DNA of 64,000 nt from an uncultured bacterium (GCA_964434115.1 CAYSSX010000001.1:397911-461910), one strand, 5' to 3'; counted from the first letter of the stretch, positions 19,344 through 44,777 are shown. The notes: generated by a model not told the origin, from the letters alone. Made by a program: numbers and translations.

Positions 19344-19385
19344 ACTTATAGCCTACTCTTACAAAGAGGAACTGTCAATCAGCTA

Positions 19386-28071: not shown

Positions 28072-28260
28072 GATTGAGATCCCTCTCTGTCTTCCTGGAA
28101 TAATTTCGATTTCCATCACCTGCTTAACAACTTTTAACAGCCTATTAATAAGTCTGTTTTAAAACCTTAACACCACATTCCAAGAGATGCAAAAAAGAAG
28201 CAAAAAAAGAGCAAAAAATAGCAGCAAAAACAGTCTGCATGTTATGAATGTATGTTTAAG

Positions 28261-28375
28261 CCGAAACCGATTTCGGGTTTCGGCAATAGGTGAAATAGCT
28301 GAAATGGCTTTTCATTTCAGCATAAGGTGAAGTGAAAACTCCGGCCTTAGGGAGTTATCACTTCATCGCGCGAGG
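28261..28375. repeat. bipartite hairpin repeat element (variant with a class-2 second hairpin)
   Basis: Perfect palindrome CCGAAACCGAtttCGGGTTTCGG, then CAATAGGTGA, then the hairpin GCTGAAATGgcttttCATTTCAGC, then ATAAGGTGA, then the stem AGTGAAAACTCC / GGAGTTATCACTT with loop GGCCTTAG, then CATCG. Confidence 0.65.
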
Positions 28376-28421
28376 AGGCCTGCTGAAGATAGGATTTTTC
28401 GGGACTGGCGGGGCAGAGACA

Positions 28422-28479: not shown

Positions 28480-28986
28480 TTACTTTTCAGTCTTGGCCCA
28501 GATCTCCTTAGCCTTGTTCATTTGCCCCTCATTGAGAACGGCCCTCAGCTTGGCGTAATCAGCGAGTGTCGCTTTGGCCGAGGTCGCCCAACCGGCTGAA
28601 GCTTGATCAATGAACGCATTTAAAGCCGCCATATCCAGCACGGGTTCTGACATTTTATCCATCAGATCCATCTGGAAAATTTCCATCTCCGCCTTGGAGC
28701 GGATCATGGACTTCTTGGTCGTGCTCTTAATGGCCTTGATCTGGGAGACCTGATCGTCAGAAAGCCCGATCGCTTCCTTGTTGGAAAGGAAGAATTTTGC
28801 CTTCTTCATGATTTTCGCGGCAATAGGACATTCCCCCTCGCTTGAACAATCGTCCCCTTGATCGCACCCTTTCTTGTCATGAAAGGAGCAGCGCCCGCCT
28901 TCACATTCATGATTCGCAAACGCGGGGGCTCCAAGAAGAGACAACATCATCAACAAACCCAGCAAAAATCCAATCGACTTTTTCAT
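28480..28986 (-). CDS. ZraP/CpxP/Spy-family periplasmic protein with an N-terminal Cys-rich metal-binding segment
   Basis: Signal peptide, then a Cys/His cluster (HECEGGRCSFHDKKGCDQGDDCSSEGECP), then two LxxxQ helical motifs (LSDDQVSQIKAI and LNEGQMNKAKEI) typical of the ZraP/CpxP heavy-metal-resistance family. Confidence 0.6.
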   Translation of the reverse strand: MKKSIGFLLGLLMMLSLLGAPAFANHECEGGRCSFHDKKGCDQGDDCSSEGECPIAAKIMKKAKFFLSNKEAIGLSDDQVSQIKAIKSTTKKSMIRSKAEMEIFQMDLMDKMSEPVLDMAALNAFIDQASAGWATSAKATLADYAKLRAVLNEGQMNKAKEIWAKTEK

Positions 28987-29093
28987 AAGACTTTCTCCTT
29001 TAGGTTAATAATTACGTGGAAGATTAGACGAGCAGCCGAGATTGCTTTCCCATCTCGGCTGAGTTTTAAATAAACGGCTTTTTTGGGAGAATC

Positions 29094-29513
29094 TCAAATC
29101 AGGAGAGTGCGAAAAAGCAGAAAAATCGGCTGCGGCGGAAGCACATCCCTGCCGGAAACCGGAGCAAAAGAAACCTGAGGAACTTGAAAAACTGCAGGCA
29201 CTGAATGCTCTGCGGCTGAAAACGCATTTAAAGAAGCACTGGGAACAATCCCTTGAAAGCGCCCGGCTTGTTCAGCCGCCGAACTGTGGTAAAAGCACTG
29301 GCCGGCGCAATCATTCCCCGCTTTCGCAGTCTTTTTGGCGCAGCAGTCATGCCCGGAAACCGCCATTTGATGGCCTTTCGGAGCTGTTTCAGACGCGTGC
29401 GCGCAGCGGCAAAACGCCGGGACAGCCGTGAAAATAAAAAAAAGCAGCGTAAAAATCGCTGCTTTTCGCTGGCCGCTAAACCGGGATTTAGGAAAGGGTT
29501 TTATCGCTTTCAT
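29094..29513 (-). CDS. small Cys/His-rich membrane-anchored protein, copy 2 (paralog of 18912..19343)
   Basis: Start MKAIKPFPKSRFSGQRKAAIFTLLFFIFTAVPAFCRCAHASE. It shares the RKAA(V/I)FTLLFF, C.CAHA.E, HDCC.K and C-terminal (I/L)(F/Y)(L/V)LFR(T/S)LLI blocks with copy 1. The listed ORF extends to 29549. Confidence 0.5.
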   Translation of the reverse strand: MKAIKPFPKSRFSGQRKAAIFTLLFFIFTAVPAFCRCAHASETAPKGHQMAVSGHDCCAKKTAKAGNDCAGQCFYHSSAAEQAGRFQGIVPSASLNAFSAAEHSVPAVFQVPQVSFAPVSGRDVLPPQPIFLLFRTLLI

Positions 29514-29553
29514 AGTGGACAGGCTAACCCTGTTCTTAAAACAAGTCAAGCAG

Positions 29554-29831
29554 CCGATTAGTTTGAGGGCAAGCCGAGGCTTGCCCCTTACTAATCGGCA
29601 ATAGGTGAGATGTTAATCTCATGCACCTGGGGATTAACATCTCATCGTCGAGCCAGCTGAAATAGCTTTTCATTTCAGCACTAGGTGAAGTGAAAACTCC
29701 GGCCTTAGGGAGTTATCACTTCATCGCACGAGGAATAACTGTAAGCTTCAGGCGGGAATGCAGCCGGTAAGCACCGCTTACCGGCAACAGGTGAATATTA
29801 CTCTCACGCTTCTGGGGAGTAATATTTCACC
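29554..29831. repeat. dense array of bipartite hairpin repeat elements (two class-1 units and one class-2 unit)
   Basis: Palindrome 29554-29597; a class-1 unit at 29598-29646 (CAATAGGTGA, stem GAGATGTTAATC / GATTAACATCTC, loop TCATGCACCTGGGG, CATCG); hairpin 29655-29678; a class-2 unit at 29679-29731; palindrome CCGGTAAGCaccGCTTACCGG at 29764-29784; a class-1 unit at 29785-29831 (CAACAGGTGA, stem ATATTACTC / GAGTAATAT, loop TCACGCTTCTGGGG, TCACCG). Confidence 0.7.
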
Positions 29832-30062
29832 GCCCAGGAAACGGCGTAAAGTGAAGTGAATCCTTTTATTGAATTTGGGTCGTTTGGGAGGGGTACCTAA
29901 TTTTAGTTGTTTGTTTTTGCAACCCAAACATCCTTTTGTTTCAGCTGAACAGCCCCCCTCCTCCTTGTGTAAAACAACGGATGTGTTATCGTTTACATGA
30001 GAGTTGCTCATAACCTTCTGTGAGTGGCCGAAGTTCCAATCATAAAATACCCGGGGGTTCAC

Positions 30063-30749
30063 ATGAAGCACTTCAAACTTTTTTCTCTTAATCTTGTTTT
30101 TTGCATGTCCATTCTTTCCCTGCCTCTTCACGCTCAAGGGGAAATGGGCTTTGTTGAACAAGGTGCGGAGCCAGTTCAGCCTGTTGCCACGGTAGAGAAC
30201 AGCGCGCCAGAGACTTCAACGGACCAGCCTACGCAAGGAGATGCCTTTTCTGATTTTATGCAGCCCGGTGCCTTAGCAGCGGCATCTGAGGATCCCATGG
30301 AAGGGACTGCAGAAAATCCGCCTGCAAACAATCCCAACAAAACTGAAACAGTCACAGTTGCACCGGACGGCACAAAGACCGTTATAACGGAGGAAATAGA
30401 AAAGGACAGCCAGGGCAATCAGAAGTCTCGAACGCTTTCAACCTCAGTTTACAACAGTGAAGGAACTCTTACGCATTGGGAGATGAGTTCTTTCGATGAA
30501 AATAATCAATTTGTTTTCAAAAGCTGGGATGACTTTAACAGTCAGGGATGGTTGATGGAACAAGGGACGGAATATGCTGATGGGAGCAAGGAAGTCACCA
30601 ACTACACCTATGATCCTGACGGCTATGTCATCGAGATCACTCAAGTGAAAGTCAAAGCAAACGGTGAGACTACTACTAAAATCGACAATCCGAAGAATTC
30701 GCTGTCCGCGAAAGAACTTATCATTAAGCAAAGTAAATCGAAAAAATAA
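30063..30749 (+). CDS. secreted hypothetical protein at the left end of the lower-GC island
   Basis: Start MKHFKLFSLNLVFCMSILSLPLHAQG gives a signal peptide. The protein is rich in Thr/Asn/Glu and has no catalytic motifs. Its GC content is lower than the flanking chromosome. Confidence 0.5.
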   Translation: MKHFKLFSLNLVFCMSILSLPLHAQGEMGFVEQGAEPVQPVATVENSAPETSTDQPTQGDAFSDFMQPGALAAASEDPMEGTAENPPANNPNKTETVTVAPDGTKTVITEEIEKDSQGNQKSRTLSTSVYNSEGTLTHWEMSSFDENNQFVFKSWDDFNSQGWLMEQGTEYADGSKEVTNYTYDPDGYVIEITQVKVKANGETTTKIDNPKNSLSAKELIIKQSKSKK

Positions 30750-30830
30750 TCCAGAGTGCGCGGGAGGTTTTGGCCATTAAAACTTACCTGTCCCGTGCGA
30801 ACACTGAAGCCTCAAACTTCAGGGAGCCTG

Positions 30831-30874
30831 CCGAAAATAAGAACTTTTCGGCTTTGGTACCCGGTACCTTTTTT
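30831..30874. terminator. bidirectional terminator between two convergent genes
   Basis: Hairpin CCGAAAAtaagaacTTTTCGG (30831-30851), then palindrome GGTACCcGGTACC (30856-30868), then TTTTTT (30869-30874), which overlaps the stop codon of the minus-strand ATPase gene. Confidence 0.5.
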
Positions 30875-33203
30875 ACACATCAGCTGCCCCGAAATACATA
30901 TCTTTAAAACTCAAACGGGATGTATTTAAACCATATTTTTGAAATTTATATCTCATAAAGGCAGACATTTTATCCTCGTGAGTTGATAAAAATATCTGTC
31001 GGTCAGAAAATTCATTCCTTAGCAAATCAACCAAACTCGATATGTTTAACTCATCAAGCGTCTGAACAGGATCATCAATAAACAACATTTTATTCTGAGA
31101 GTATCTTTTATTTAGAGTTAAAGTAAAAGCTAAAATCAAAACCGCTAATTGCCCGGAACTCATTGTGAAAATTGCATCATAGGATTTCTTGGGGTCGGGT
31201 AAAAACCTAATGCCATTTTTATCAGAAATAAATAACCCCATCCCCTCTTGGCAGTCCTGAACAATCCGCCCCGAATATAAATGAAATAATATTTCAATAT
31301 CAGCAATAATTTTTCTTTGATACTCCAAAAGGGATTTCTCGTAAATCCTCTTAAGCTTATTTAGCCCATCCTTCATCTTTGAGGCATTCTCGAAGCGCCC
31401 CTGACTTTCATCATATTCTCTCTTTCGATCTTTTAAAGATTTACTCTGATGTAATGAATACTGCCATTTAATGTACTCTTTTTTCTCATCAATATCTTTA
31501 ATACTTATTTCCCTAACCAATTCTGATTTCTCATTAAAAAATTTCAGAAAAATGTCGGCAAAATACGGCTTTATCTTTGTCGCGTCTAAAGGTCGCTTTT
31601 GTTCTACTAATGCTTTTTTTAGAGATGCTAACTTTGAATCCAAATTCGATTTGGGCTCATCCAAATCCTGAACAATAATACCCTTTTGACGCAATTGCTC
31701 ACCAATAGCTATAAGTGTAGATTGATTGCGAACCGCAGCTTGAAGCCCAGCTACAAAAACCTCATCAATGGGGTTGCTAATTAAATAATCATTCAACATT
31801 TTCTTAATGGGGATAATGAACTCGGCCTCGAACCTTTCAACCAGTGATTTTAAATCTTTACCGGATTCTTCCGTTAATTTTCGAAAGCGATTCTGTTGAA
31901 CTTCAATTTGAAGCTTTAATACATCTAATGACACCCAGTCATGTCCGCACATCGGGCATTCTGTTTCTTTGCTTAATTCCGTAAAAGCAGTAAATATTCG
32001 AGCGAATGAGCTTCTGGAGTCTTCTAACTTAGCCACAATTTCTGAAAATTTATTTAGTGACGCGGATTGCTCAGCAATATTTTGCTTTACGCGATCATAT
32101 GCTTTAAAATCAATTTGATGAGATAAAACAGATTCAACCCTTGCTAAAACCACATTCTTGTCCAACGCAAATTTTAAGGTACCCTTATCAAACTCCGCCA
32201 AGATTCTTTTGATCTCCTGACGAATACTCAATTTATTCACATAAAGTTCAACATCATTTAAATGCTTCGAATACAAAATTATTTGTTTTAGAGAGGCCTC
32301 CTGACCGATCAAACCATCTAATTCGCGGTTCCTTTTCTCCTGTTCGAAAATATCAATATTACCTATAAGTGATTTAACTTTTTCCAACAAGCCATCTTCG
32401 CCAATCCAGCTAGCATACTGACCCTCTTTAAATTGCACTTGTTGTCTATCCCAATCAAAGTCGCCCCACGCGAAAAGCTTCGCGTATGCCACCTCGCGAA
32501 TATCACCTAACATCTCCGCCTCAATCGCTTCTATTTCTTTTTTTAAGATTTCTAGTCGGCTAGATTCAGCAGCGCCGCACAGTTCGCCGATCTTCGAAAT
32601 CGAATCTTTAATTTTATCTACTTGATTTTGGAAGCTAAGAGTATTGAACAAATAATCAATAGCATCTTTTCTTTCTCGATCTTTACATTTCAGCAAAGCA
32701 ATATTCTCTTCCTGCTCTACGTAATGGAGAAAACGAAAATTCTCACGGTAATTTAACCCTAACAACTCTTTCAAATAATCATTTTCATTCTTTACCAAAT
32801 TGCCTTCTGTAGCTTCAAAAGCTGTCAGTTCATATAATGGAGAGACGAATTCAGATATCCTCGTCTTTTGAGATAGCTCCAAACGAGTACTCTTCCTCAT
32901 CAATATTCTATCCTTACCATTAGCTTCGATTACGGCTTTGATAATAAGGTCACCGTCCTTGCGCCTACTATTTAAATAAGGATTTTCAGTAAAACTCTCA
33001 CGCCCATCTGTTGCAAGCTTGGCCCATTCTTCATACCTACGAATTTTCCCAGTAAGGAGTAGCTCCATAGCGTCAAAAAATGTGGTTTTCCCAAAGCCAT
33101 TCGGACCATCAAAAATAATAAAGTCCGAATCGTTAAGGTCAACCGAAAACGTTTGAAAAACCTTAAAATTTTCTATGTGAAATTTTCTAATTTTAATGCC
33201 CAT
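30873..33203 (-). CDS. SMC/Rad50-like ABC ATPase with a long coiled coil and a central CPxC hook (LmuB-like, Lamassu/ABC-3C-type defence ATPase)
   Basis: Walker A GPNGFGKTT; ABC signature MSSGQ; Walker B MLFIDDP; H-loop STHE. About 500 aa of coiled-coil sequence lie between the head halves. ETECPMCGHDW is encoded at about 31935-31967, at the midpoint, like a Rad50 zinc hook. The preferred start is MGIKIRKFHIENFKVF at 33203; the listed ORF starts at 33218. The gene is low in GC. Confidence 0.75.
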   Translation of the reverse strand: MGIKIRKFHIENFKVFQTFSVDLNDSDFIIFDGPNGFGKTTFFDAMELLLTGKIRRYEEWAKLATDGRESFTENPYLNSRRKDGDLIIKAVIEANGKDRILMRKSTRLELSQKTRISEFVSPLYELTAFEATEGNLVKNENDYLKELLGLNYRENFRFLHYVEQEENIALLKCKDRERKDAIDYLFNTLSFQNQVDKIKDSISKIGELCGAAESSRLEILKKEIEAIEAEMLGDIREVAYAKLFAWGDFDWDRQQVQFKEGQYASWIGEDGLLEKVKSLIGNIDIFEQEKRNRELDGLIGQEASLKQIILYSKHLNDVELYVNKLSIRQEIKRILAEFDKGTLKFALDKNVVLARVESVLSHQIDFKAYDRVKQNIAEQSASLNKFSEIVAKLEDSRSSFARIFTAFTELSKETECPMCGHDWVSLDVLKLQIEVQQNRFRKLTEESGKDLKSLVERFEAEFIIPIKKMLNDYLISNPIDEVFVAGLQAAVRNQSTLIAIGEQLRQKGIIVQDLDEPKSNLDSKLASLKKALVEQKRPLDATKIKPYFADIFLKFFNEKSELVREISIKDIDEKKEYIKWQYSLHQSKSLKDRKREYDESQGRFENASKMKDGLNKLKRIYEKSLLEYQRKIIADIEILFHLYSGRIVQDCQEGMGLFISDKNGIRFLPDPKKSYDAIFTMSSGQLAVLILAFTLTLNKRYSQNKMLFIDDPVQTLDELNISSLVDLLRNEFSDRQIFLSTHEDKMSAFMRYKFQKYGLNTSRLSFKDMYFGAADV

Positions 33204-33900
33204 TTTGATCACCTTCAAAAAACGGCCATAACAATTTGTAAAATTCGCTTGGCTTCATATTTTTTATATCACCCGATGAGACTTTATCGAGTACCGTCAT
33301 TAGCGATTTATTAACGTCTAGCATTCCATCTTTAGCCAAGGCCTTGTCATGCTCCTCAAGTAATGATTGCAGCCCTTGAGACTCACCAATATTAATTTTT
33401 ATGAAAGGCAATTTAATTGCTAATCGATAGATTAAAGATTGCCATGTTTTTACATAGGGATCATTTTTATAGTCATCAAATATTTGCTTAGAAACAATGC
33501 CGTCCTCTATGAATTTCGCGATGTCTCTTTCTGCAATTTGGTTTTGTAATTGCTGCAACTCTTTAGCAGCATAACCCAAAACATACTTTTTAAAAAAATA
33601 CGGGTCTTCCTCTATTTTCATTTTATTTTTTTTAAACTGTTCGCGCGGCACGCTTCCATCTGTTTCCCACAGCACCAACATCGAAAGATTTTTATCAACT
33701 CCAGGTTCAGAGCAAATTTTCTTACACTCGTTAAAATTAAAAGCCTGTTGCTCTAAAACCGAATCGATTTTGTCGGTTACTTTTATTACAAGCCAATACT
33801 GTTCGCGATTTTCGTTGGCACTCTCACAGAAAAGTCCGTTTTTAAATTCGAAAGTTTTAAATCCGTACCGCTCGAAAAGGATTTTTGTCAGCTCAAGCAT
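33193..33900 (-). CDS. small protein encoded between effector and ATPase (LmuC-like/middle component), function unknown
   Basis: 235 aa. It overlaps the upstream gene by 8 nt and the downstream ATPase by about 11 nt, consistent with a three-gene operon. It is low in GC and has no catalytic motifs. Confidence 0.5.
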   Translation of the reverse strand: MLELTKILFERYGFKTFEFKNGLFCESANENREQYWLVIKVTDKIDSVLEQQAFNFNECKKICSEPGVDKNLSMLVLWETDGSVPREQFKKNKMKIEEDPYFFKKYVLGYAAKELQQLQNQIAERDIAKFIEDGIVSKQIFDDYKNDPYVKTWQSLIYRLAIKLPFIKINIGESQGLQSLLEEHDKALAKDGMLDVNKSLMTVLDKVSSGDIKNMKPSEFYKLLWPFFEGDQNGH

Positions 33901-35176
33901 TGATAATTCCTTTCGCTTCAGCCAAAGGGATTAATGCGATTTTTTTCCATAATGTAATGCGATTATATTCGCTGGCTTTTTGAGAGTCATTTTTTGCTGT
34001 ATCTAAGACGTGAGGGGCTTTATCGGTAATAGAATCCACTTTTATATCGGTTGTGATTAGATTATCTCTTTCATAGCTAAGTCCCAAATCTGTTCGCAGG
34101 GCATTTTGAATGATTTTTTCACAAATAGCTGCATCATGGCTTGGACCGGCTTGAATAGCTGTCGGATAGTAGCGCTCAGATGCGCTCAAACATTCAAATA
34201 CGGATTTAGCTTCTTTAAAATCTAGCTGTTTAAGCTCGGCTAAGATTTTAAAAAAAGCACCCTGCACTTCCGATTGGATTAAAGTGTGGTTATGATAATC
34301 CGTTATCGAGTCAAATTTTATTTCTCGATGAGGTGTTATATTTTGAATGAAGGTCACAATGCTTTTAGTATCTAATTTTTCTATCGTCTCAAAGTAAGAA
34401 GCCATTTTTTTACAAAGTTCAGAATCGCTAAACTTTTCACAAAATTCCAGGTAATACCTGCGAAAATCCATTCGAATCAAATATAAAAAATATTTAGCAT
34501 CGCCACTTTGACTTAAGTTAGCATTCAAAATTGATGTAAATTCGGTCAGGTTTATTTTTTCTCGAAAAGCAACGGCGGCCATACTTCCTTTACTTTTTTG
34601 ACCCATCGCATGAATTTTCAAAACCCTGTCGTGGACAAGTTCAAACAAGAAGACCTTAACCTTCTGAATATAAGCGCTGTCACATCTCCAAGACTTTTCA
34701 GGTTCTGGAGAATGTTCAGAAAAATACTTCCTCACTTGTTCTTCTATTTTTGAATCAATGCCATCGACAGGACATTCATACCTTTCCTCATACTTGTAAA
34801 CCTTGACGGGGGAGAATTCAGATTCTATTTCACTAATAGGTTTGTTCGTAATCTCATTAGCCAAATGAAAAAAGGCGCGATCACAACCGTATTCAGAAGC
34901 GCGATTTTTTAATTTTTCAAAAGCACTATTTCCAGCCGAATCGTTATACCCACTAAAAGGTCCTTTTGCATGCGCTTTCACTTGGTGAAGAGATATTATT
35001 TCGTTTTCTTTTTTCAAAAGAGCAAAATCCTCTAAAGAATCTAATTGGAGATAGCAATCTTCCTGGGGGCGTTCGCACAAGGTCTTGATGACGTGATATA
35101 TAGCAACTTTCCCTTGATACACATAACCGCTCCATGAAGGAATTGCGGTATCTGGGAAGGCGGAGGCTTCGGGCAT
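33893..35176 (-). CDS. LmuA-like effector with an N-terminal Cap4-type (DUF4297-like) PD-(D/E)xK nuclease domain
   Basis: The N-terminal roughly 90 aa read SWSGYVYQGKVAIYHVIKTL...LQLDSLEDFALL...IISLHQVKA, which fits the GxxYQ ... E.(E/D)D ... QxK pattern of Cap4/LmuA nuclease domains. The roughly 330-aa C-terminal region is of unknown function. It lies 3 nt downstream of the preceding gene. Confidence 0.55.
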   Translation of the reverse strand: MPEASAFPDTAIPSWSGYVYQGKVAIYHVIKTLCERPQEDCYLQLDSLEDFALLKKENEIISLHQVKAHAKGPFSGYNDSAGNSAFEKLKNRASEYGCDRAFFHLANEITNKPISEIESEFSPVKVYKYEERYECPVDGIDSKIEEQVRKYFSEHSPEPEKSWRCDSAYIQKVKVFLFELVHDRVLKIHAMGQKSKGSMAAVAFREKINLTEFTSILNANLSQSGDAKYFLYLIRMDFRRYYLEFCEKFSDSELCKKMASYFETIEKLDTKSIVTFIQNITPHREIKFDSITDYHNHTLIQSEVQGAFFKILAELKQLDFKEAKSVFECLSASERYYPTAIQAGPSHDAAICEKIIQNALRTDLGLSYERDNLITTDIKVDSITDKAPHVLDTAKNDSQKASEYNRITLWKKIALIPLAEAKGIINA

Positions 35177-35179
35177 TAT

Positions 35180-36436
35180 TTATTCTTCCTTTGTATCATC
35201 GACTGGTAACTCCAATGGTTTTATTGCTTGAAGCGCATTACCAGCTAACCCCTCTAGATCCCCATACATGCCAGCCGTATTTGAGACGATTCGTTCAATT
35301 TGCTTTTGCCTTTTATCCCAAATGCGTTGCATGGCTCTTTTTTCGGCATCGAGATCTTCCTGCATAGTTCGGAAAGCTTCGATAATCGCTGTAACCTTAT
35401 TCCGAAATTCCGAACCTGTCACATACCGATAAATTAGTTCTTTTTTATCATCTTTGCTGCTTTCAATTTCCCGCGCGGTAGCCACTTGTATTAAAACCAT
35501 TCTTAACGCCAAAGCGAGGCTTAACGCAGAGGGAATGTCCGTTACCCACACGTCTTGTATTTGTCTAAAATGATGAAATCCCGGAGGAAGCGTTTCTGAT
35601 ACTAAAACAGACAGATCTGCTTTAGCTTCTCGCTGATCGTCTTTAAGCTTTAACAACCAAGATTCAGTCCAGTTCTTAGCCCGTTTGGTTTCCCAAAGGA
35701 TTTTTCCGCATACACGACCCGATTGCGTCCTGACAGTCTGTAAAATATCCCCGCCACGAACCCCCTTAGAAACCGGTTCAATTTCATCAAAAGGAAATTC
35801 TCGTCTGAAAGCAGCCTCAAGCTCAAGCTCTAATACTTCCCCCTGTGTTTGCTGCGAACCTTGCTCCATTTTTCGTTTAAGATCCTCAATCTGTTTTAAA
35901 GCGTCTGTTAACTTCTTTTCTTTTTCCGCATCCTTAAGCTTGTGCTGCTCTTCTAAACGGACAAACAGAGCATGCTCTATCTTCGCTCGTTCCTCATCAA
36001 GCTTTCTTGCCATATCCAACTCCAGAGATCTTTCCTTCTCTTCGAGTAAGTGTTGACGTTTGCGCAACTCAACTTCGTTATCCTGCGCAACCTTCAAACG
36101 CGCTCTCGCGGCATCAGCCTGCGCTTTCAGGTCTGCGAGCTCGACATCAACTGCTTCTTTGGCTTCCTTCTGAAGCTTTGTCTCCAATAACTTTCGTTGT
36201 TCTTTAAATCTCTGTTCTATTTCTAGCTCTCTTTGCACCAGCGCTTGGCGTTCGGCTTCGATTTTAGTTGCAAGCGATTTGTCTTTTTCCGCCAACTGTG
36301 ACCGCAAAGCCGCTTTTTCTTTATCCAAGGCCTGAAGATACTTTTGACGAGTTCTCTCTTCAATATCATGAGAAAGAGCTTCGGTAAGTGGTATTAGCTC
36401 ACCACATTTGGGACATTTAATTGATTCTTGGGCCAT
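35180..36436 (-). CDS. DUF2130-like protein: N-terminal zinc ribbon, long coiled coil and C-terminal PD-(D/E)xK-like nuclease fold
   Basis: CPKCGELIPL zinc-ribbon at the N-terminus, then about 200 aa of Glu/Lys/Arg/Leu-rich coiled coil, then a C-terminal GGDILQ...ILWETKRAKNW motif (D...ExK). Confidence 0.55.
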   Translation of the reverse strand: MAQESIKCPKCGELIPLTEALSHDIEERTRQKYLQALDKEKAALRSQLAEKDKSLATKIEAERQALVQRELEIEQRFKEQRKLLETKLQKEAKEAVDVELADLKAQADAARARLKVAQDNEVELRKRQHLLEEKERSLELDMARKLDEERAKIEHALFVRLEEQHKLKDAEKEKKLTDALKQIEDLKRKMEQGSQQTQGEVLELELEAAFRREFPFDEIEPVSKGVRGGDILQTVRTQSGRVCGKILWETKRAKNWTESWLLKLKDDQREAKADLSVLVSETLPPGFHHFRQIQDVWVTDIPSALSLALALRMVLIQVATAREIESSKDDKKELIYRYVTGSEFRNKVTAIIEAFRTMQEDLDAEKRAMQRIWDKRQKQIERIVSNTAGMYGDLEGLAGNALQAIKPLELPVDDTKEE

Positions 36437-36457
36437 ATTATCCTTCGCACATCTCGG

Positions 36458-37357
36458 TCAAATGATGGTTGCGTTTACTCTATCTATAAGCTGTTTCTTT
36501 AAATCATTCTCTTCTTCCCATAAAATGTGACTGAATTGCCGCGTATCAAAATGCAGGGTCTCGCCTTTTTTGCAAACCCAGATTACTTCTTTACCGATTC
36601 CTTTTGCATACCCCGCTTCGTAGTATGCACTCGGACGTTCACCGCTTAACTCAGCAACTACGAACTTGCTCTTTTTTATACCCGAAATTATCAGATTTGT
36701 TACATCATCGTTTGTTTGCTCACCTTTAACACGATATGCCTCATAGCCACAAGTGGCCAGCGCTTCAGCAATCTTTTCATAGGCAAAATCATAATTAGGT
36801 GAAAAATTCATAGCAACAAAACACAATCTCGCATTTACATTTATTTTTTCTAAATCATAAAAATGCCGCCATCCCGTCATTGTTAACCTGTATTCGAATA
36901 TAGAGCTTGCTGCACTTTTCGATCTACCCTCGAACAGTTTTTCAGACATAAGATATTTAAGAATATCTGACAATTCTTGTGCGCTGGGTGAAAAAGTCAG
37001 CGAATAATCATTATCGCGATCAATATCTATATATTGTCCAAACGCATTACTCTTTTTGCCAATATATGTAACTATTTTGTCAATTTTATCCGGAACTTTG
37101 CGGGGTATATCCGCACCATTTAGAATACCGCTGATACTTTCCGTAGTAATAAGAATAGTATTCGCGTTGCGCTCTGTTCGCCACCGCAGCACGCCAGAGA
37201 TTTCAGCTCTTCGCTCTGTTACTGAGCCTGCTAAGCAAGATCCCGTTATAGAGTACTTACCGCATCTTTTACATTCGATATGAAAGCAATCCCTTAGAGG
37301 CTCACGATCGAATTTCGAGTATTTCTTTCCGCAAAACGGACAGTTGTTCTCAGTCAT
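36458..37357 (-). CDS. zinc-ribbon protein with a C-terminal nucleoside 2-deoxyribosyltransferase/Rcl(DNPH1)-like domain
   Basis: The N-terminus has two Cys pairs (CPFCGKKY...CFHIECKRCGKY). The C-terminal domain aligns with the Rcl/NDT fold: LCFVAMNF...Y...I, then FVVAELSGERPSAYYEAGYAKGIGKEVIWV (compare VVAEVTQPSLGVGYELGRAVALGKPILCL), then WEEENDLKKQLIDR. Confidence 0.6.
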   Translation of the reverse strand: MTENNCPFCGKKYSKFDREPLRDCFHIECKRCGKYSITGSCLAGSVTERRAEISGVLRWRTERNANTILITTESISGILNGADIPRKVPDKIDKIVTYIGKKSNAFGQYIDIDRDNDYSLTFSPSAQELSDILKYLMSEKLFEGRSKSAASSIFEYRLTMTGWRHFYDLEKINVNARLCFVAMNFSPNYDFAYEKIAEALATCGYEAYRVKGEQTNDDVTNLIISGIKKSKFVVAELSGERPSAYYEAGYAKGIGKEVIWVCKKGETLHFDTRQFSHILWEEENDLKKQLIDRVNATII

Positions 37358-37408
37358 TATCAGCCTTCGTTTTGAACGTTATCACTTTCCAAAAGCACCG
37401 GGTTCAAC

Positions 37409-37984
37409 TTAAGCTTTTCTTGAAGGCACTTTTTTATACTTTGCCTTCATGAACTTATTAAAGTGAGTTGTGTACCTGTCATGAAAGCACACTTTGAAGA
37501 TTTGCTTGTATGAGATCGAATAATCCTTTTCCCATGTAGCATCCGCGTCGTAACAGAATATTTTAAAACTCTCATCATGCATTTCAACAACTGGGCCGAC
37601 ATAAAACGCAGAATCTTTTCCGTTAGCGGATAGGGCTTCTATCCCGGGCCAAACTTGCCGTTTTTGACATTCTTTAATTACTTCCTTCAAAGATTCGCAT
37701 CTATCGACCCATCCAGGAATTTTCAATTTGTTAATGGCACCGTTAAACCTGATAATTTTGTTGTAGCAACTCTCAAAACGATTATCCCTGAATCCTTTGA
37801 TAAATCGCTTGGCCAAGATTGTAACGCCATCAAACTCCAACTCATCCATCTGAGCTAAAACAACAAAGGTCTGAGTTTCCTTTAACACGACTCCATCGTA
37901 ATGATCTCCATCCGGATGCCTTGTTTTAAGGCGGATAACCCATTTCTTTTTTAGCGATTTGCAGTAAATGTCAGATAGTTTCAT
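37409..37984 (-). CDS. hypothetical protein, first gene of the low-GC island operon
   Basis: The ORF extends to 38137, but the first roughly 50 codons are GC-rich flank-like sequence. The start MKLSDIYCKSLKKKWVIRLK at 37984 matches the island composition. No recognisable motif. Confidence 0.4.
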   Translation of the reverse strand: MKLSDIYCKSLKKKWVIRLKTRHPDGDHYDGVVLKETQTFVVLAQMDELEFDGVTILAKRFIKGFRDNRFESCYNKIIRFNGAINKLKIPGWVDRCESLKEVIKECQKRQVWPGIEALSANGKDSAFYVGPVVEMHDESFKIFCYDADATWEKDYSISYKQIFKVCFHDRYTTHFNKFMKAKYKKVPSRKA

Positions 37985-38140
37985 TTTCTTACGTACACTT
38001 TCCAAAAGTTCCGGGTTCAGTCTGGGTCTTTGCACCTGAACAAAAAGTTTTCCGCCGCGAGTTCCGCAGGCGCGCAGCGACGAGGACTGTCTGAGCGCCG
38101 GAAAAGCTTTTTGAGAAGGTGCTGACGCCTCAGCCATCCA

Positions 38141-38198
38141 GCCGACAACCTTCTAGTTGTCGGCACCGCCGTTCCCGAAGCTTCAGTCGGGAATGGCG
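38141..38198. repeat. inverted partial copy of the 19386-19617 repeat family
   Basis: GCCGACAACCttctagtTGTCGGC at 38141-38164 is the same palindrome as 19386-19409. GTTCCCGAAGCTTCAGTCGGGAATGG at 38171-38196 is the reverse complement of CCATTCCCGACTGAAGCCTCGGGAAC from the 63-bp tandem unit. Confidence 0.65.
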
Positions 38199-38333
38199 TT
38201 GAGAAGAGAAGTTAAAAACTCTGACGCTGCGCTATTTCCTATACAGCGGTGCGCTGTTCCCAGCAGATGCATCTGGGAACAAGCTTTAAGGAAACAGCGT
38301 TGCCCACAGGGGGGAATAAAGCTAGAAGCTGCT

Positions 38334-39041
38334 TTATTCCCCTAGGTATGCCTGTTTAATCTGCGGGCTTTCCAGAAGCTCCTGCCCGCTGCCTTCCATC
38401 TGGATTTTGCCGCTCTCAATGACATAGCCGTAATCCGCGATTTCGAGGGCTTTGAAGGCGTTTTGTTCCACGAGGAGAACGGTCATGCCGCCCGCGTGGA
38501 TCTTTTGAATGAGGGAGAAAATCATTTCGACCATTTTGGGCGCGAGTCCCAAACTGGGTTCATCAAGAAGAAGAAGCTTGGGGCGGCTCATGAGCGCGCG
38601 GGCCATGGCCAGCATCTGCTGTTCGCCGCCGCTTAGATTTCCGGCCAAGCCTTTCAAACGTTTTTTCAATACCGGGAAAAGTTCCAGCATTTCTTCGCGG
38701 TCGCGCTGGACTTCTTTTCCATCTGTGCGGATATACGCGCCCAAATCAATATTCTCACTCACCGTGAGGTGCTGAAACACGCGGCGGCCTTCCGGCGAAT
38801 GCGTAATGCCCTGACGCACCACGCGGTCAGGCGTCATTTTTTCAATGGCCTTGCCTTCGAATTCAATACTGCCCTTGCGGGCTTGCACAATACCGGAAAG
38901 CGTCATGAGAAACGTGGTCTTGCCCGCGCCATTGGAACCGATCAAGGTGATGATCTTTCCCTCCGGCACCCGGAGGCTGATGCCTTTCAGGATCTCCACC
39001 TTACCGTAACCCGCATGAAGATTCGTGACTTCGAGAAGCAT
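38334..39041 (-). CDS. livF: branched-chain amino acid ABC transporter ATP-binding protein LivF
   Basis: Start MLLEVTNLHAGYG at 39041; GSNGAGKTT Walker A; LSGGEQQM signature; LLLDEPS Walker B. The listed ORF starts at 39086. Confidence 0.85.
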   Translation of the reverse strand: MLLEVTNLHAGYGKVEILKGISLRVPEGKIITLIGSNGAGKTTFLMTLSGIVQARKGSIEFEGKAIEKMTPDRVVRQGITHSPEGRRVFQHLTVSENIDLGAYIRTDGKEVQRDREEMLELFPVLKKRLKGLAGNLSGGEQQMLAMARALMSRPKLLLLDEPSLGLAPKMVEMIFSLIQKIHAGGMTVLLVEQNAFKALEIADYGYVIESGKIQMEGSGQELLESPQIKQAYLGE

Positions 39042-39051
39042 TTTTGTCCCG

Positions 39052-39864
39052 TTATTTTTTAGCGCATTTGCCAAGATAGGCCTCAATCACCCGCGGGTCG
39101 TTTTGAATGTCCCGGGGTTCGCCTTCCGCGATTTTTTTCCCATAATCCAGCACCACCACATGGTCCGAAACCGGCATCACGACTTTCATGTCATGCTCGA
39201 TCAAAAGCACCGTGACCCCGCGGTCGCGGATGGCGCGGATCGTGGCCAAAAGCTCTTCTTTTTCCTTGGGATTCATGCCGGCAGCAGGTTCATCGAGAAG
39301 CAGAAGATCGGGTTCCGAAGCCAAGGCGCGCGCAATCTCCAGCCTGCGCTGATGGCCGTAGGCAAGGTTTACGGCAAGTTCCTGCGACTTGGAAGCAAGA
39401 CCGAAAAAGCTGAGCAGGCGGTGCGCGTGATGAATCAGTTTCCGCTCTTCCGTGCGTGCCCATTTCGGCCTGACGATGCCGGCCCAGATGCCTGCGCGGG
39501 CGCGGCAATGAGCGCCGGCCATCACATTTTCAAGCGCGGTCATATGTTTGAACAAACGGACATTCTGAAAAGTGCGTGCAATCCCCCGGTCCGTAATTAA
39601 ATGCGGGTCCATGGCATTGAGCAGCGTCTGGGAAGCGCCAAAACAAATCGTGCCTTCATCCGGGCAGTAAAGGCCGGTAATACAGTTAAACAAGGAAGTT
39701 TTTCCCGCGCCGTTGGGGCCGATCAAACTGACCACCGTCCCTTTGTTGACGGTAAAGCTCACGTCATCAATGGCCGTCACGCCGCCAAAACGTTTGGTGA
39801 GGTTTTCCACCTTAAGCAGCACCGAATCAAGTTCGGCATGTTCGGTTTTTTTCCGGAGCCTCAT
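39052..39864 (-). CDS. livG: branched-chain amino acid ABC transporter ATP-binding protein LivG
   Basis: GPNGAGKTS; LAYGHQRRLEIARAL; LLLDEPAAGMNP; and the LivG-specific C-terminal extension. Confidence 0.85.
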   Translation of the reverse strand: MRLRKKTEHAELDSVLLKVENLTKRFGGVTAIDDVSFTVNKGTVVSLIGPNGAGKTSLFNCITGLYCPDEGTICFGASQTLLNAMDPHLITDRGIARTFQNVRLFKHMTALENVMAGAHCRARAGIWAGIVRPKWARTEERKLIHHAHRLLSFFGLASKSQELAVNLAYGHQRRLEIARALASEPDLLLLDEPAAGMNPKEKEELLATIRAIRDRGVTVLLIEHDMKVVMPVSDHVVVLDYGKKIAEGEPRDIQNDPRVIEAYLGKCAKK

Positions 39865-40832
39865 AGTTCAACCGGCTCCTTTTTTCTTTTGAATTCCTCG
39901 CGGTGGCGGCTTTCCCCCAAAATCCCCTGCGGACGGAACAGCATCATGAGGATCATGGCAATGCCGAAAAGCAGCATGCGGTAAATGGCAAACCCGCGAA
40001 GAAGTTCCGGCAGCACACTCAGGATAAAAGCTCCGAAGAGAACGCCCGTGATATTGCCGAGGCCGCCCAGCACCGCCATGGCCAGCACCATCACGGAAAG
40101 GATGAAGTCAAAACTGTCGGGCGAAACCGTACCCTGTTTGGCCGCGAAAATACAGCCCGCGACCCCGGCCACAAACCCGGAGATTCCAAAGGCCGAGAGC
40201 TTGGCCCACAGCGGGTTGATGCCCATGCAGGACGCCGCGAGTTCATCCTCGCGAAGCGCGACCCAGGCGCGGCCCAGACGGGAGGACTCAAGGCGCTTCA
40301 AGGCCCAGATGAGCAAAAGAACGCAAACCAGCACAAGATAATAATAAGGCTTGGGACGAACCCCGAAATTAAACCAAAGCTGCGGGTGCGCGATATTGAG
40401 AAGACCGTTAGGGCCGCCCGTGATTTCATCCAGGTTGTTCAGCACAATGCGCACAATCTCTCCCGCGCCAAGCGTCACAATGGCGAGGTAGTCCCCGCTC
40501 AAGCGGAGCGCGGGCCAGGCCAGCAGCATTCCGAAACCCGCGGCCACAGCAGCGGACACAAAAAGACCGGGCCAGAATGGCAGGCCAAAGTGAAGGTTCA
40601 TGAGCGCGTAGGTGTAGGCGCCCACGGCAAAAAAAGCCGCGTAGCCAAGATTCAAAATACCCGTGTACCCCACCACCACGTTGAGTCCCAAGGCCAGCAG
40701 CATAAAAATGCCCGTGGAAACCAGGACATCCAGGTGATAGGAATTCGAATCAATGAGGGGGTAAAGGAAGAAAAGGACGGGAACCAGGTAAGACAAAACT
40801 TGGGAGTGCTGGCGCGTGAGTTTAAACTTCAT
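39861..40832 (-). CDS. livM: branched-chain amino acid ABC transporter permease LivM
   Basis: 323-aa polytopic membrane protein of the LivM type, overlapping livG by 4 nt. Confidence 0.8.
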   Translation of the reverse strand: MKFKLTRQHSQVLSYLVPVLFFLYPLIDSNSYHLDVLVSTGIFMLLALGLNVVVGYTGILNLGYAAFFAVGAYTYALMNLHFGLPFWPGLFVSAAVAAGFGMLLAWPALRLSGDYLAIVTLGAGEIVRIVLNNLDEITGGPNGLLNIAHPQLWFNFGVRPKPYYYLVLVCVLLLIWALKRLESSRLGRAWVALREDELAASCMGINPLWAKLSAFGISGFVAGVAGCIFAAKQGTVSPDSFDFILSVMVLAMAVLGGLGNITGVLFGAFILSVLPELLRGFAIYRMLLFGIAMILMMLFRPQGILGESRHREEFKRKKEPVEL

Positions 40833-41746
40833 ACTTTTTTACACACCCTTGAACCCAGCAAGCCTGAGGGACGAAACAGCAAAATAAGAATCAGAATAAA
40901 AAACGCGAAAACGTTTTTCCATTCAGACGAGATATACCCCGCGCCCAAACCTTCAAAGACACCAATCAACACACCGCCCACCATGGCCCCGGGAATATTC
41001 CCGATACCGCCCAGCACCGCGGCCGTGAAGGCCTTAAGACCCGCGAGATAGCCGTCGTGGAAGTTGATGGTGTTGTAATACATGCCAAACATCACGCCGC
41101 CCGCGCCAGCCAAAGCCGCGCCGATCAGGAATGCGATCATAATCACCCGGTCCACATCAATGCCCATGAGGCTCGCGGCCTTCATGTCATCCGCGAGCGC
41201 GCGCATGGCCTTGCCGGTTTTGGTCTGGGTGATAAAAAGATGAAGAACGCCCATCAGCACCGTGGAAATCACGGCAATCAGAATCTGCAGATTGGTAAGC
41301 GTCACGGCCCCAAAAGAAAACTTATGGAGCTTGAAAACCATGGGGAAGCTTTTATCCGCGGGGCCGAACATCAGCATCACGGCATTCTGTAAAAGGAAGG
41401 AAACACCGATCGCGGTGATGAGCGGCGCAAGACGCGGCGCGGTCCGCAAGGGGCGGTAAGCAAAGCGCTCAATGGTCATTCCGAGAAACGCGGTTCCGGC
41501 CATGACCAGCATAAGCACAATCGGAAGCAGGTAAACCGTTCCCTGCAGCGCCGGAAAAACCTTTTGGAGAATCAGGAAGAAAAGAAGGCCGAGGTACGCG
41601 CCCACCATAAACACTTCGCCGTGCGCGAAATTGATGAGCTGGACAATGCCGTAAACAATGGTGTAGCCAAGCGCGATCAGGGCATAAATCATCCCGATCG
41701 TCACCCCGTTAATCACCTGCTGAAAAAAAACTTCCGTTGAACCCAT
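40829..41746 (-). CDS. livH: branched-chain amino acid ABC transporter permease LivH
   Basis: 305-aa LivH-type permease, overlapping livM by 4 nt. Confidence 0.8.
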   Translation of the reverse strand: MGSTEVFFQQVINGVTIGMIYALIALGYTIVYGIVQLINFAHGEVFMVGAYLGLLFFLILQKVFPALQGTVYLLPIVLMLVMAGTAFLGMTIERFAYRPLRTAPRLAPLITAIGVSFLLQNAVMLMFGPADKSFPMVFKLHKFSFGAVTLTNLQILIAVISTVLMGVLHLFITQTKTGKAMRALADDMKAASLMGIDVDRVIMIAFLIGAALAGAGGVMFGMYYNTINFHDGYLAGLKAFTAAVLGGIGNIPGAMVGGVLIGVFEGLGAGYISSEWKNVFAFFILILILLFRPSGLLGSRVCKKV

Positions 41747-41807
41747 TCCTGGATCAGAAACTCCGCTGATGGTTCAGATGAGGAAAACCGGGACAGTCAT
41801 CCAGGCG

Positions 41808-42986
41808 CTATTCCGCCGGACCGATGTAGACAAGCTTGCCGCCCGTGAATTTAAAAATGCCGATACTCTGGTTCTTGTTGTCGCCGCGTTCATCAAAAAT
41901 AATTTTTCCCGTGACGCCTTTGAACTCCGGAATTTCACGCATGGCCTTGAGGACCGCCAAACGGTCTTTCTTTCCGGCCTTGATCACGGCATCGATCAGG
42001 ACATTGACCGAGTCGTAAGCGTACGCGGACCATTGCCCCACCGGCCCATACTTCCCTTCATAAACCCGCACAAAATCCGCGGCTTCGGGAATGGCCTTAA
42101 TATCGCCCCCGACCATGGTGGCATAAGTGCCTTCCACAATGTCCGCGGAAGCCAGCTCAATCAAGGTCGGCGCCGCAAGGCCGTCACCGCCCATAAACAC
42201 AGACTTTATATCCAGCCCGCGCGCCTGGCGGATCAGAAGCGCGCCTTCGGGGTAGATGCCTCCGAAATAAATGATTTCCGGCTGAAGCGGTTTGATCTTG
42301 GTGAGAAGCGGTGTGAAGTCCTTGTCGCCCTGCGTAATGCCTTCATGCCCGAGGACCTCAAAGCCCAGCTCGCGCGCCTTTTTGTCAAACTCATCGGCCA
42401 GGCCTTTTCCGTAGGTGGTCTTGTCATCAATAATAAAAATTTTCCGGAACCCCAGCTTGTGGTACGCATAGTCCGCGCCGCGCGGGCCTTGAACATCGTC
42501 TGTGGCGCAGGTGCGGAAGAAAGTTTTAAAACCCTGGCGGGAAAGTTCGGGATTGGTGGAAACAGCGGTCACGGAAGTGAGTTCAGCAGAGGCATAAATC
42601 GCGGAGGCCGGCTTGGTGCAGCTCGAATTGAAATGGCCGACCACGCCGACTACATCCGGGTCTGAGGCTAAGCGGTTCGCCATATTCACGGCCTGCGACG
42701 GGTTATGCTGGTCATCCAGAATCACAAGTTCAAACTTGAACCCGGTCAGCCCCTTGCCCTCGGCATTGGCCTGGTCAATGGCCACCTGCGCTCCGTTGCA
42801 GGTATCAATCCCCAATTTGGCCTGATCGCCGGTCAACGGGGCCACACAGCCAATTTTAATGGTTGAAGAGGAGGAGCTTTGTCCGCATCCAGCAGCGAAC
42901 ATCAGGGATAACATCAAAGCAGACGCGAGATAGGCTTTCTTCAAAAGACCCTCGGGGGTGTTTTTAAACGGAAATTCCAGGTTCAC
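41808..42986 (-). CDS. livK: branched-chain amino acid ABC transporter substrate-binding lipoprotein (LivK/LivJ family)
   Basis: Periplasmic-binding-protein type I fold sequence with the lipobox LMFAAGC. The listed start at 42986 is a GTG; the true start may lie slightly downstream. Confidence 0.75.
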   Translation of the reverse strand: MNLEFPFKNTPEGLLKKAYLASALMLSLMFAAGCGQSSSSSTIKIGCVAPLTGDQAKLGIDTCNGAQVAIDQANAEGKGLTGFKFELVILDDQHNPSQAVNMANRLASDPDVVGVVGHFNSSCTKPASAIYASAELTSVTAVSTNPELSRQGFKTFFRTCATDDVQGPRGADYAYHKLGFRKIFIIDDKTTYGKGLADEFDKKARELGFEVLGHEGITQGDKDFTPLLTKIKPLQPEIIYFGGIYPEGALLIRQARGLDIKSVFMGGDGLAAPTLIELASADIVEGTYATMVGGDIKAIPEAADFVRVYEGKYGPVGQWSAYAYDSVNVLIDAVIKAGKKDRLAVLKAMREIPEFKGVTGKIIFDERGDNKNQSIGIFKFTGGKLVYIGPAE

Positions 42987-43073
42987 TTTTGTTCGGGCGG
43001 ATTATACGTTCAAAAAGCCTTTGGATGCAAGCAGATGCATCACTTTTAGGAAAATTTTTTTACAGGTTAGGCT

Positions 43074-43117
43074 GGGGTAAAAAAGAGGGCGCTGAAACCG
43101 GTTAGTTCTTTTTCAGC
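43074..43117 (-). terminator. possible rho-independent terminator after pntB
   Basis: On the minus strand: GCTGAAA aagaactaaccgg TTTCAGC followed by GCCCTCTTTTTTACC. The hairpin overlaps the pntB stop codon. Confidence 0.3.
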
Positions 43118-44469: not shown

Positions 44470-44777
44470 GACTTCTTGACCTCTTCGGTTTTGCGCTTCT
44501 TGAACATCTTGAGCATGCGGTCCGTGATCAGGAAACCGGAAACAATGTTGGTCATGGAACAGAACACCGCGATGGAACCCAGAATCGTGCCGAGCGTGCT
44601 GTGGTGTTCCGCGGAACCCGCGACAAGAATGGCGCCCACAATGCAAATGGCGCTGATCGCGTTGGTGAGCGACATCAAAGGCGTGTGAAGGAGCGGAGAA
44701 ACCTTTTTAATAACATCCAGGCCGACAAACGTGGCCAGCATGAAGACCATCAAACCGCTGACAAAGAATTCATTCAT
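44466..44777 (-). CDS. pntAB: NAD(P) transhydrogenase subunit alpha part 2 (membrane domain)
   Basis: 103-aa protein with three transmembrane helices typical of PntA-II. It lies 4 nt from pntAA. Confidence 0.8.
   Translation of the reverse strand: MNEFFVSGLMVFMLATFVGLDVIKKVSPLLHTPLMSLTNAISAICIVGAILVAGSAEHHSTLGTILGSIAVFCSMTNIVSGFLITDRMLKMFKKRKTEEVKKS

Follow-up and report, generated by a model that had tools for sequence, protein, structure and literature searches.

Lamassu systems have been described as long and short types: the long type has an LmuB of ~800 aa with a Walker A motif of the form Gx4GK[ST], a Walker B motif of the form hhhhDD and a single CxxC zinc hook in its coiled-coil region, while the short type has a Walker B motif of the form hhhhD[Q/S/T/E] (Haudiquet et al. 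2025, PMC12663957). The Lamassu systems that have been studied experimentally and solved are nearly all of the short type (PMC12663957). One of these is the Vibrio cholerae system, which is the source of the mechanism proposed below (PMC12663957). Here we analysed a 64-kb stretch of DNA from an uncultured bacterium (CAYSSX010000001.1, 397911-461910; hereafter the window), in which a block of six genes at 30873 to ~38040 lies between the livKHMGF operon and a small native gene. We consider it quite probable, at roughly 85%, that this block is a mosaic defence island that reached an Omnitrophota-like chromosome by horizontal transfer and consists of a long-type Lamassu core and three independent cargo genes. 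One of the cargo genes encodes a DUF2130 protein, a family listed among those related to PD-(D/E)xK phosphodiesterases (Steczkiewicz et al. 2012, PMC3424549). Numbered from the low coordinate, the six genes are:

30873 to 33218, minus strand: gene 1, lmuB, 781 aa, predicted long-type Lamassu ABC ATPase resembling structural maintenance of chromosomes (SMC) proteins and Rad50
33193 to 33900, minus strand: gene 2, lmuC, 235 aa, predicted middle component MComp1 of an ABC-three component (ABC-3C) system
33893 to 35176, minus strand: gene 3, lmuA, 427 aa, predicted Lamassu effector with a Cap4-like PD-(D/E)xK N-terminal domain and an ABC-3C CTD1 domain
35180 to 36436, minus strand: gene 4, DUF2130 protein, 418 aa, in which an N-terminal CxxC is followed by ~170 residues of coiled coil and, at the C-terminus, by a PD-(D/E)xK nuclease domain
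36458 to 37357, minus strand: gene 5, 299 aa, with a zinc ribbon, a winged-helix-like middle domain and a C-terminal N-glycosidase-like domain of the nucleoside 2-deoxyribosyltransferase (NDT)/TIR fold
37409 to 37984, minus strand: gene 6, 191 aa, uncharacterised, with two tandem Sm/Tudor-like beta-barrels

The block has a foreign composition

The GC content of the 7.2-kb block 30873-38040 is 38.5%, compared to 54.1% in the remainder of the window. Background windows of 7.1 kb averaged 54.2% (sd 0.76%, minimum 52.2%), so that the block lies ~20 sd lower. Tetranucleotide frequencies correlated with the background at only 0.22-0.38 within the block but at 0.78-0.93 elsewhere. GC at third codon positions (GC3) is 33-42% in the six genes, as opposed to 59-70% in the flanking genes, and the synonymous codon usage of the island genes correlated with that of native genes at 0.42-0.50, compared to 0.72-0.97 for native genes among themselves. 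The initial annotation had described a sharp fall in GC from 29870 to 38100 against a background of ~58%, and had named a profile along the stretch as the way to check it. The profile is not uniform, and the fall and the tetranucleotide deviation were both confirmed for 30873 to ~38040. The measured background, however, is ~54%, and the stretch 29870-30872, which holds a plus-strand open reading frame (ORF) of 241 aa, is only intermediate (GC 46%, GC3 46%).

The island genes are tightly packed, with gaps of 51, 21 and 3 nt followed by two overlaps, and nearly all of the block is coding. GC differs among its parts: 36-38% in lmuA, lmuC and lmuB, 43.9% in the DUF2130 gene and ~39% in genes 5 and 6.

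lmuA, lmuC and lmuB are predicted to encode a long-type Lamassu system

LmuB matched the PADLOC LmuB model over its full length (E 7e-64) and the Pfam families AAA_23 and SMC_N (each E 2.6e-15), and a three-sequence profile built on it matched Rad50 ATPases in the PDB. All the characters of the long type are found in this protein. Walker A is GPNGFGKT (residues 38-45). Walker B is MLFIDD (711-716), in which FIDD occupies 713-716; it has the hhhhDD form, and I714, D715 and D716 are invariant in the three sequences. The zinc hook CPMC (421-424) is the sole motif of its kind, and C421, P422, C424 and G425 are likewise invariant. The signature SSGQ (687-690) and the H-loop STHE (745-748) were also located, and the key residues, including K44, C421/C424, S687-Q690, D715-D716 and H747, are invariant in two plasmid homologues. 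The length of 781 aa, together with Walker A, the hhhhDD Walker B and the one CxxC hook, points to the long type.

LmuC matched Pfam MComp1 (PF20289; E 2.4e-12, 47 bits, cut-off 27.3), and its gene shares 8 nt with lmuA and 26 nt with lmuB. In LmuA, residues 124-378 matched Pfam CTD1 (PF20276; E 1.3e-43), and PADLOC LmuA was matched at E 4.9e-25. A motif D46, D50...Q65-V-K67 lies in its N-terminal part, and D46, D50, Q65 and K67 are invariant in homologues. Plasmid operons of Catenovulum, Escherichia coli and Klebsiella, annotated as 'ABC-three component system', have matching gene order and overlaps at 24-31% identity. Altogether, the Pfam and PADLOC matches identify lmuA, lmuC and lmuB, as far as sequence can, as a bona fide Lamassu (ABC-3C) system.

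The six genes are absent from a related genome

Relatives were found through LivF at 85-86% identity, one of them labelled Candidatus Omnitrophica; the informative ones are L099 (LivF 85%) and L095. Scanning genome contigs with LivF returned only distant relatives, at most 65% identical among the matches listed, and one of these (L002) was too distant for use. Exact-protein look-ups with LivF, LmuA and gene 5 gave nothing, or a 1.3-kb contig that is identical to the window and ends before the junction. The features that bear on the comparison are:

38041 to 38119, minus strand: segX, a 79-nt long hairpin in the native flank at the right junction, 94.9% identical to L099 4405-4483
30024 to 30749, plus strand: ORF of 241 aa, secreted-looking, GC 45.7%, GC3 46.3%, of uncertain island membership
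29094 to 29549, minus strand: ORF of 151 aa with intermediate GC3
28480 to 28986, minus strand: native gene for a 168-aa Cys/His-rich periplasmic protein, GC3 62%, the left anchor

In L099 the order is a giant protein A, segX, an 84-aa ORF, the 168-aa gene, livKHMGF, a 745-nt spacer with hairpins resembling repetitive extragenic palindromes (REP), and an orthologue of a 2833-aa protein of the window. Nucleotides 29017-28418 of the window, which hold the 168-aa gene, are 76.7% identical to L099 5163-5761. The distance from segX to the 168-aa gene is 680 nt in L099, compared to ~9 kb in the window (38040 to 29017), where the interval contains the island, the 241-aa ORF, a hairpin array and the 151-aa ORF. 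No homologue of any of the six island genes was found in L099 or L095. Comparison with a related genome had been named beforehand as a test that could refute acquisition, and the result, flanks 680 nt apart with none of the six genes between them, favours it. The accompanying expectation that livF and the Cys/His-protein gene would be adjacent in the empty state does not hold in so simple a form, as the livF neighbourhood is rearranged among the relatives. Homology to L099 stops at 38041, coinciding with the GC step, which sets the right junction at 38040/38041.

Neither the 241-aa nor the 151-aa ORF (GC3 46-49%) has a family match or a counterpart in L099 or L095; they may represent an older or separate acquisition, or may not be real genes. 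The gene found downstream of livF is different in all three genomes: the island is there in the window, a 2869-aa giant protein gene in L099, and a fatty-acid desaturase with BacA, equivalent to window 6557-4640, in L095. This makes the intergenic region 3' of livF, with its many REP-like hairpins, look like a hot spot of rearrangement. segX folds at -42.6 kcal/mol (z -2.3) and is conserved at 94.9% though the neighbouring genes are only ~77% identical; the L099 copy lies upstream of livK, in another position. Possible identities for segX are a conserved RNA and a mobile repeat.

Three independent genes lie upstream of the Lamassu genes

The gene 4 product matched the DUF2130 family (PF09903) over its full length (E 5.4e-71, 239 bits, cut-off 26.7) and keeps the nuclease motifs GGD(230)IL and WE(249)TK(251), that is, D230...E249-x-K251. 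PADLOC gave no match for it. Only 3 nt separate its stop codon from the lmuA start. Homologues stand alone on conjugative plasmids and in Helicobacter prophages: on Mesorhizobium plasmid pMLa the gene adjoins relaxase, ParA and ArdC-like genes, on a Granulicella plasmid it adjoins NB-ARC and helicase genes, and in the Helicobacter prophages it adjoins ParA. We considered whether the DUF2130 protein is a Lamassu subunit and rejected this, since the gene is not upstream of the other Lamassu operons inspected.

The architecture of the gene 5 family is conserved, with a zinc ribbon (CPFC, CKRC), a middle domain and a C-terminal domain carrying FxAMxF, YYEAGYA and HFD. Within YYEAGYA (245-251) and HFD (269-271), the residues Y245, E247, A248, G249, A251, F270 and D271 are invariant, E247 across 33 sequences. 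In an AlphaFold2 model (mean confidence, pLDDT, 89.8), the C-terminal domain was matched by Foldseek to the TIR domains of SARM1 and TcpB, the CMP N-glycosidase BcmB and DNPH1, with probability 1.0 and a template-modelling (TM) score of ~0.7. Pfam Nuc_deoxyrib_tr is matched by 31 of the 33 family members, the window protein scoring 25 bits, under the cut-off of 28.8. DUF4062 (PF13271) has no match in the window protein and weak matches in three of the 33 (best E 2.6e-4). On the basis of the predicted fold and the conserved candidate catalytic Glu E247, gene 5 belongs to the NDT/TIR N-glycosidase superfamily. PHROG 16139 was matched at E 7.6e-35, and the PADLOC model 'Effector TIR' of the cyclic oligonucleotide-based antiphage signalling system (CBASS) at E 1.7e-11, the sole PADLOC match among the three extra genes. 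Membership in CBASS, Thoeris or Pycsar was rejected, because PADLOC and Pfam found no CD-NTase, ThsA/ThsB or pyrimidine cyclase among the neighbours.

The contexts of gene 5 homologues that we examined were five metagenome contigs, two plasmids and 52 viral contigs from IMG/VR. Neighbours vary, and in none of these contexts was a DUF2130 gene or a gene 6 relative found beside the homologue. In viral contigs the homologues sit in prophage accessory ('moron') slots, between ArpU/integrase genes and the terminase; they also adjoin restriction-modification-like and other defence genes, and the viral loci have GC contents from 33% to 65%. The family thus spans at least 52 viral contigs, plasmids and PHROG 16139, and is absent from PADLOC as a system. 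In a separate scan of viral contigs with the single proteins DUF2130, gene 5 and LmuA, no matches were returned.

Gene 6 had no match in Pfam, NCBIfam, PADLOC or PHROGs. Its family comprises 244 clusters at 50% identity, and its AlphaFold2 model (pLDDT 96.8) matched only generic Hfq or Tudor barrels. Contigs with homologues have GC contents of 36-41%. In both long contexts the homologues are associated with Rhs genes: in the metagenome contig L103 the homologue begins 27 nt past a gene for a 1161-aa Rhs toxin, and in L104 another homologue is part of an array made up of small ORFs and Rhs C-terminal tips. The neighbours in three short contigs are instead small membrane ORFs, and none of the five contexts has a gene 5 neighbour. 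The positions in L103 and L104 are those of Rhs immunity genes, which suggests that gene 6 could be an orphan immunity protein against Rhs-type toxins and possibly a new Rhs-immunity fold. As a whole, L103 818-7290 forms a small conflict locus, with the Rhs toxin gene, the gene 6 homologue, a serine resolvase and a 450-aa TIR_2 protein.

The start of gene 6 at 37984, as initially annotated, agrees with the homologues, all of which align from residue 52 of a longer 242-aa ORF. That ORF is the publicly annotated product P0001 (37409-38137), whose first 51 residues cross the junction into GC-rich native DNA and segX. Because all homologues begin at residue 52, the annotated start reaching 38137 is probably wrong. 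A short repeated element was found on either side of gene 6:

37996 to 38019 and 37383 to 37406, minus strand: 24-nt element TGAACCCGGnnCTTTTGGAAAGTG, upstream of gene 6 and of gene 5

These are the only two matches to TGAACCCGGnnCTTTTGGAAAGTG in the window, and none occurred in 100 shuffles. Each lies within the acquired block, ending 11 nt (gene 6) or 25 nt (gene 5) before the start codon. The element may serve as a promoter or operator common to the two genes, or may be left over from cassette-wise assembly. An integron-cassette reading was rejected, as the element is not palindromic and there is no integrase.

A possible mechanism

If the system works like the solved one of Vibrio cholerae, monomeric LmuA would be kept inactive by an LmuB2-LmuC complex. 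We hypothesize that, when a phage or plasmid invades, the complex binds its DNA ends or its replication intermediates and, with slow ATP hydrolysis, would release LmuA. The freed LmuA would then tetramerise, and its Cap4-like nuclease would degrade DNA, aborting the infection. Upstream of the Lamassu genes are three independently mobile single-gene units, probably co-transcribed. Of these, gene 5 may couple a zinc-ribbon sensor to the NDT/TIR-fold N-glycosidase, and would probably deplete NAD+ or nucleotides when triggered.

The three extra genes could also act in defence on their own account. We hold it as a tentative proposal, at somewhat worse than even odds, that the gene 5 family constitutes a single-gene abortive-infection system new to description and that the DUF2130 and gene 6 families are further unrecognised conflict genes. 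The N-terminal module of gene 5 would sense a phage component, and the N-glycosidase domain would destroy NAD+ or (deoxy)nucleotides.

Weighing the interpretation

The proposal of a horizontally acquired anti-phage or conflict island, made in the initial annotation, is supported by the foreign composition and codon usage, by the Lamassu genes together with three genes from families of plasmids, prophages and conflict loci, and by the absence from L099. Its description of six defence-like genes is accurate in that one known system is present, while the remaining three genes are independent and do not form one six-gene system with it. The PADLOC run it called for on the six proteins recovered LmuA, LmuB and, for gene 5, 'Effector TIR'.

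Several observations count against our interpretation. PADLOC called no system from the three extra genes. The N-terminal 134 residues of LmuA matched Cap4_nuclease (PF14130) only weakly (E 5.7e-4, 20.6 bits), below the cut-off of 26.2, and the solved Lamassu structures were not recovered from the PDB when LmuA, LmuB and LmuC were searched with phmmer, hmmsearch and profiles. Since no solved Lamassu structure is detectable by sequence, the mechanism outlined above would be an extrapolation from the short type to the long type. The relatives are distant (LivF 85-86%, ~77% at the nucleotide level) and rearranged around livF, so that from synteny alone the genes could have been lost in their lineage. 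The left junction lies somewhere between 30872 and 29017. Finally, we found neither an integrase or transposase nor a tRNA gene or target-site duplication.

The best of the alternatives is that the three non-Lamassu genes are hitch-hiking cargo with no anti-phage function, namely an RmuC-like nuclease for recombination or for maintenance of a mobile element, a nucleotide-salvage enzyme and a toxin immunity protein. Such roles would suit a DUF2130 gene whose homologues lie in plasmid backbone regions, a gene 5 whose Pfam match is to nucleoside 2-deoxyribosyltransferase and a gene 6 with homologues in Rhs immunity positions, and neither DUF2130 nor gene 6 has a PADLOC system match. However, the zinc-ribbon and winged-helix-like N-terminal region of gene 5 is of a sensor type, unlike salvage NDTs, and the company that the genes keep is that of defence: restriction-modification-like and other defence genes beside gene 5 homologues, NB-ARC and helicase genes beside the Granulicella DUF2130 gene, and Lamassu beside all three here. 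We regard the hitch-hiking explanation as rather unlikely.

Alternatively, the block might be the decayed cargo of an integrated prophage, integrative and conjugative element or plasmid that has lost its mobility genes, as opposed to a discrete island insertion. The frequency of the gene 5 family in viral contigs, in 'moron' slots, and the position of DUF2130 genes beside relaxase and ParA on conjugative plasmids and beside ParA in Helicobacter prophages would both fit such an origin, as would a composition that is a mosaic of two parts. But the block spans just 7.2 kb and is nearly all coding, and neither in it nor beside it is there an integrase, recombinase, structural or transfer gene, tRNA gene or att-like repeat. 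Searches of Pfam, NCBIfam and PHROGs for integrases, transposases and recombinases, which gave no match, covered the six island genes, the small ORFs at 28480-30749 and the genes at 38334-45898. A decayed element is an improbable source.

That all six genes make up one integrated, novel six-component system, Lamassu with three accessory sensors or effectors, is very improbable. The genes are co-directional and tightly packed, down to the 3 nt between the DUF2130 stop and the lmuA start, they share a low GC, and no terminator-like site separates them. Against this, Lamassu operons elsewhere lack the three extra genes, which showed no co-occurrence with one another or with Lamassu in the more than 60 gene 5, several DUF2130 and five gene 6 contexts, and the GC of the DUF2130 gene (43.9%, as against 36-38%) suggests a separate origin. 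It is hardly credible that the low GC is native and reflects the amino-acid make-up of the proteins or a local bias in mutation, without any horizontal transfer. Lys, Glu, Ile and Asn are abundant in the proteins, and this lowers GC at first and second codon positions, but GC3, the least constrained, is also ~25 points lower, the codon usage is that of an outlier, the genes are absent from the relatives, and the GC contents noted above for gene 6 homologue contigs and viral gene 5 loci speak for an outside source.

Hairpins and neighbouring genes

An acquired island with a Lamassu core remains the preferred reading, and its surroundings contain further elements:

38141 to 38210, strand not assigned: REP-like double hairpin between livF and the island, fold z -4.85, also in L099
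30830 to 30868, strand not assigned: hairpins that separate the stop codon of lmuB from the convergent 241-aa ORF, with an 8-bp stem at 30830-30852 and a GGTACCCGGTACC palindrome, then T6 on the plus strand

Hairpin arrays occur at 19330-19620, 28230-28376 and 29554-29860, with the unit frame CGGCAAYAGGTGA...TCAYC. The ~17-bp stem sequences differ between copies yet remain complementary, and one copy matches an intergenic copy of L099 at 93% identity. The flanking arrays are real by their fold (z -4.7 to -8), and the element at 38141-38210 aligns in inverted orientation with its homologues at 19480-19598 (score 82, against a null maximum of 30). The flanking repeats had been proposed to bound the island; the right one is indeed an inverted member of the family, but as island termini they were rejected, since members of the family also lie at 19.3-19.6 kb and in L099. 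A direct repeat of 80 nt with 95% identity (28297-28376 and 29655-29734) brackets the 151-aa ORF and the native 168-aa gene, which suggests that this module was moved or duplicated via recombination between hairpin arrays.

At 30831-30874, where a bidirectional terminator had been annotated, the plus strand is terminator-like (hairpin, GGTACC palindrome, T-run), but on the minus strand no T-run follows the hairpin. A promoter and terminator scan of the window did no better than on shuffled sequence, Rfam identified no known RNA in the window and left the hairpin arrays unmatched, and the window has no tRNA genes. The neighbouring genes are housekeeping (liv, pntAB) or encode giant proteins. 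Two giant minus-strand ORFs, at 46039-63897 (5952 aa) and 19618-28119 (2833 aa), have native composition, and their orthologues in the relatives, of at least 3233 aa and of 2869 aa, contain cadherin-like and Big-like domains. Giant ORFs of this kind fit an Omnitrophota-like genome.

Comparison with known systems

The island is fairly ordinary and does not overturn current understanding. It is a clean case of an acquired defence island in a poorly studied Omnitrophota lineage whose members carry giant genes, and it adds a divergent, predicted long-type Lamassu-Cap4 system. By guilt by association it also nominates three uncharacterised, widespread families for defence and conflict screens, namely DUF2130, the zinc-ribbon-NDT/TIR proteins and the tandem Sm/Tudor-barrel proteins, whose members occur on plasmids, in prophages and in conflict loci.

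With Rhs/YD polymorphic toxin loci, gene 6 shares the immunity positions that its homologues occupy in L103 and L104, the two informative contexts; it differs in that the window has no toxin gene and that its family matches no Pfam Imm family. Retron Ec86 has an NDT-like effector with which the NDT/TIR-fold domain of gene 5 can be compared, although gene 5 has neither a reverse transcriptase nor a multicopy single-stranded DNA partner. Among single-gene NADase defences with TIR-like or NDT-like domains, gene 5 resembles Swarozyc/DUF4062 (bioRxiv 10.64898/2026.05.01.722283) as a stand-alone gene whose NDT/TIR-fold domain keeps an invariant Glu (E247) and is joined to an auxiliary region that is non-catalytic; unlike it, gene 5 is not DUF4062, and its auxiliary region is N-terminal and made up of the zinc ribbon and the winged-helix-like domain. 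The DUF2130 protein is like other members of PF09903 in its full-length match and its D...ExK motif, but it is encoded directly upstream of a Lamassu operon, whereas the family is absent from PADLOC and has no described function or defence role.

The solved, short-type Vibrio cholerae system (DdmABC, Lamassu Vc-Cap4) shares its component logic with the island: a sensor resembling SMC proteins, a small subunit that acts as a bridge and a nuclease effector, Cap4 in Vibrio cholerae and putatively Cap4-like here. Its LmuB, however, is of ~600 aa, has no zinc hook and carries a Walker B of the form hhhhD[QSTE], and phmmer and hmmsearch against the PDB detected no similarity to the window proteins. 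Compared to long-type Lamassu/ABC-3C systems with MC1 and CTD1 (PMC12663957), the window proteins share no more than 24-31% identity with the closest examples from plasmids, the putative Cap4 domain has diverged too far to pass the Pfam cut-off, the host is Omnitrophota-like, and the DUF2130 gene 3 nt upstream of lmuA is not seen in the other operons inspected. What the island has in common with these systems is the overlapping lmuA-lmuC-lmuB arrangement, the motifs of a 781-aa LmuB, MComp1 and CTD1.

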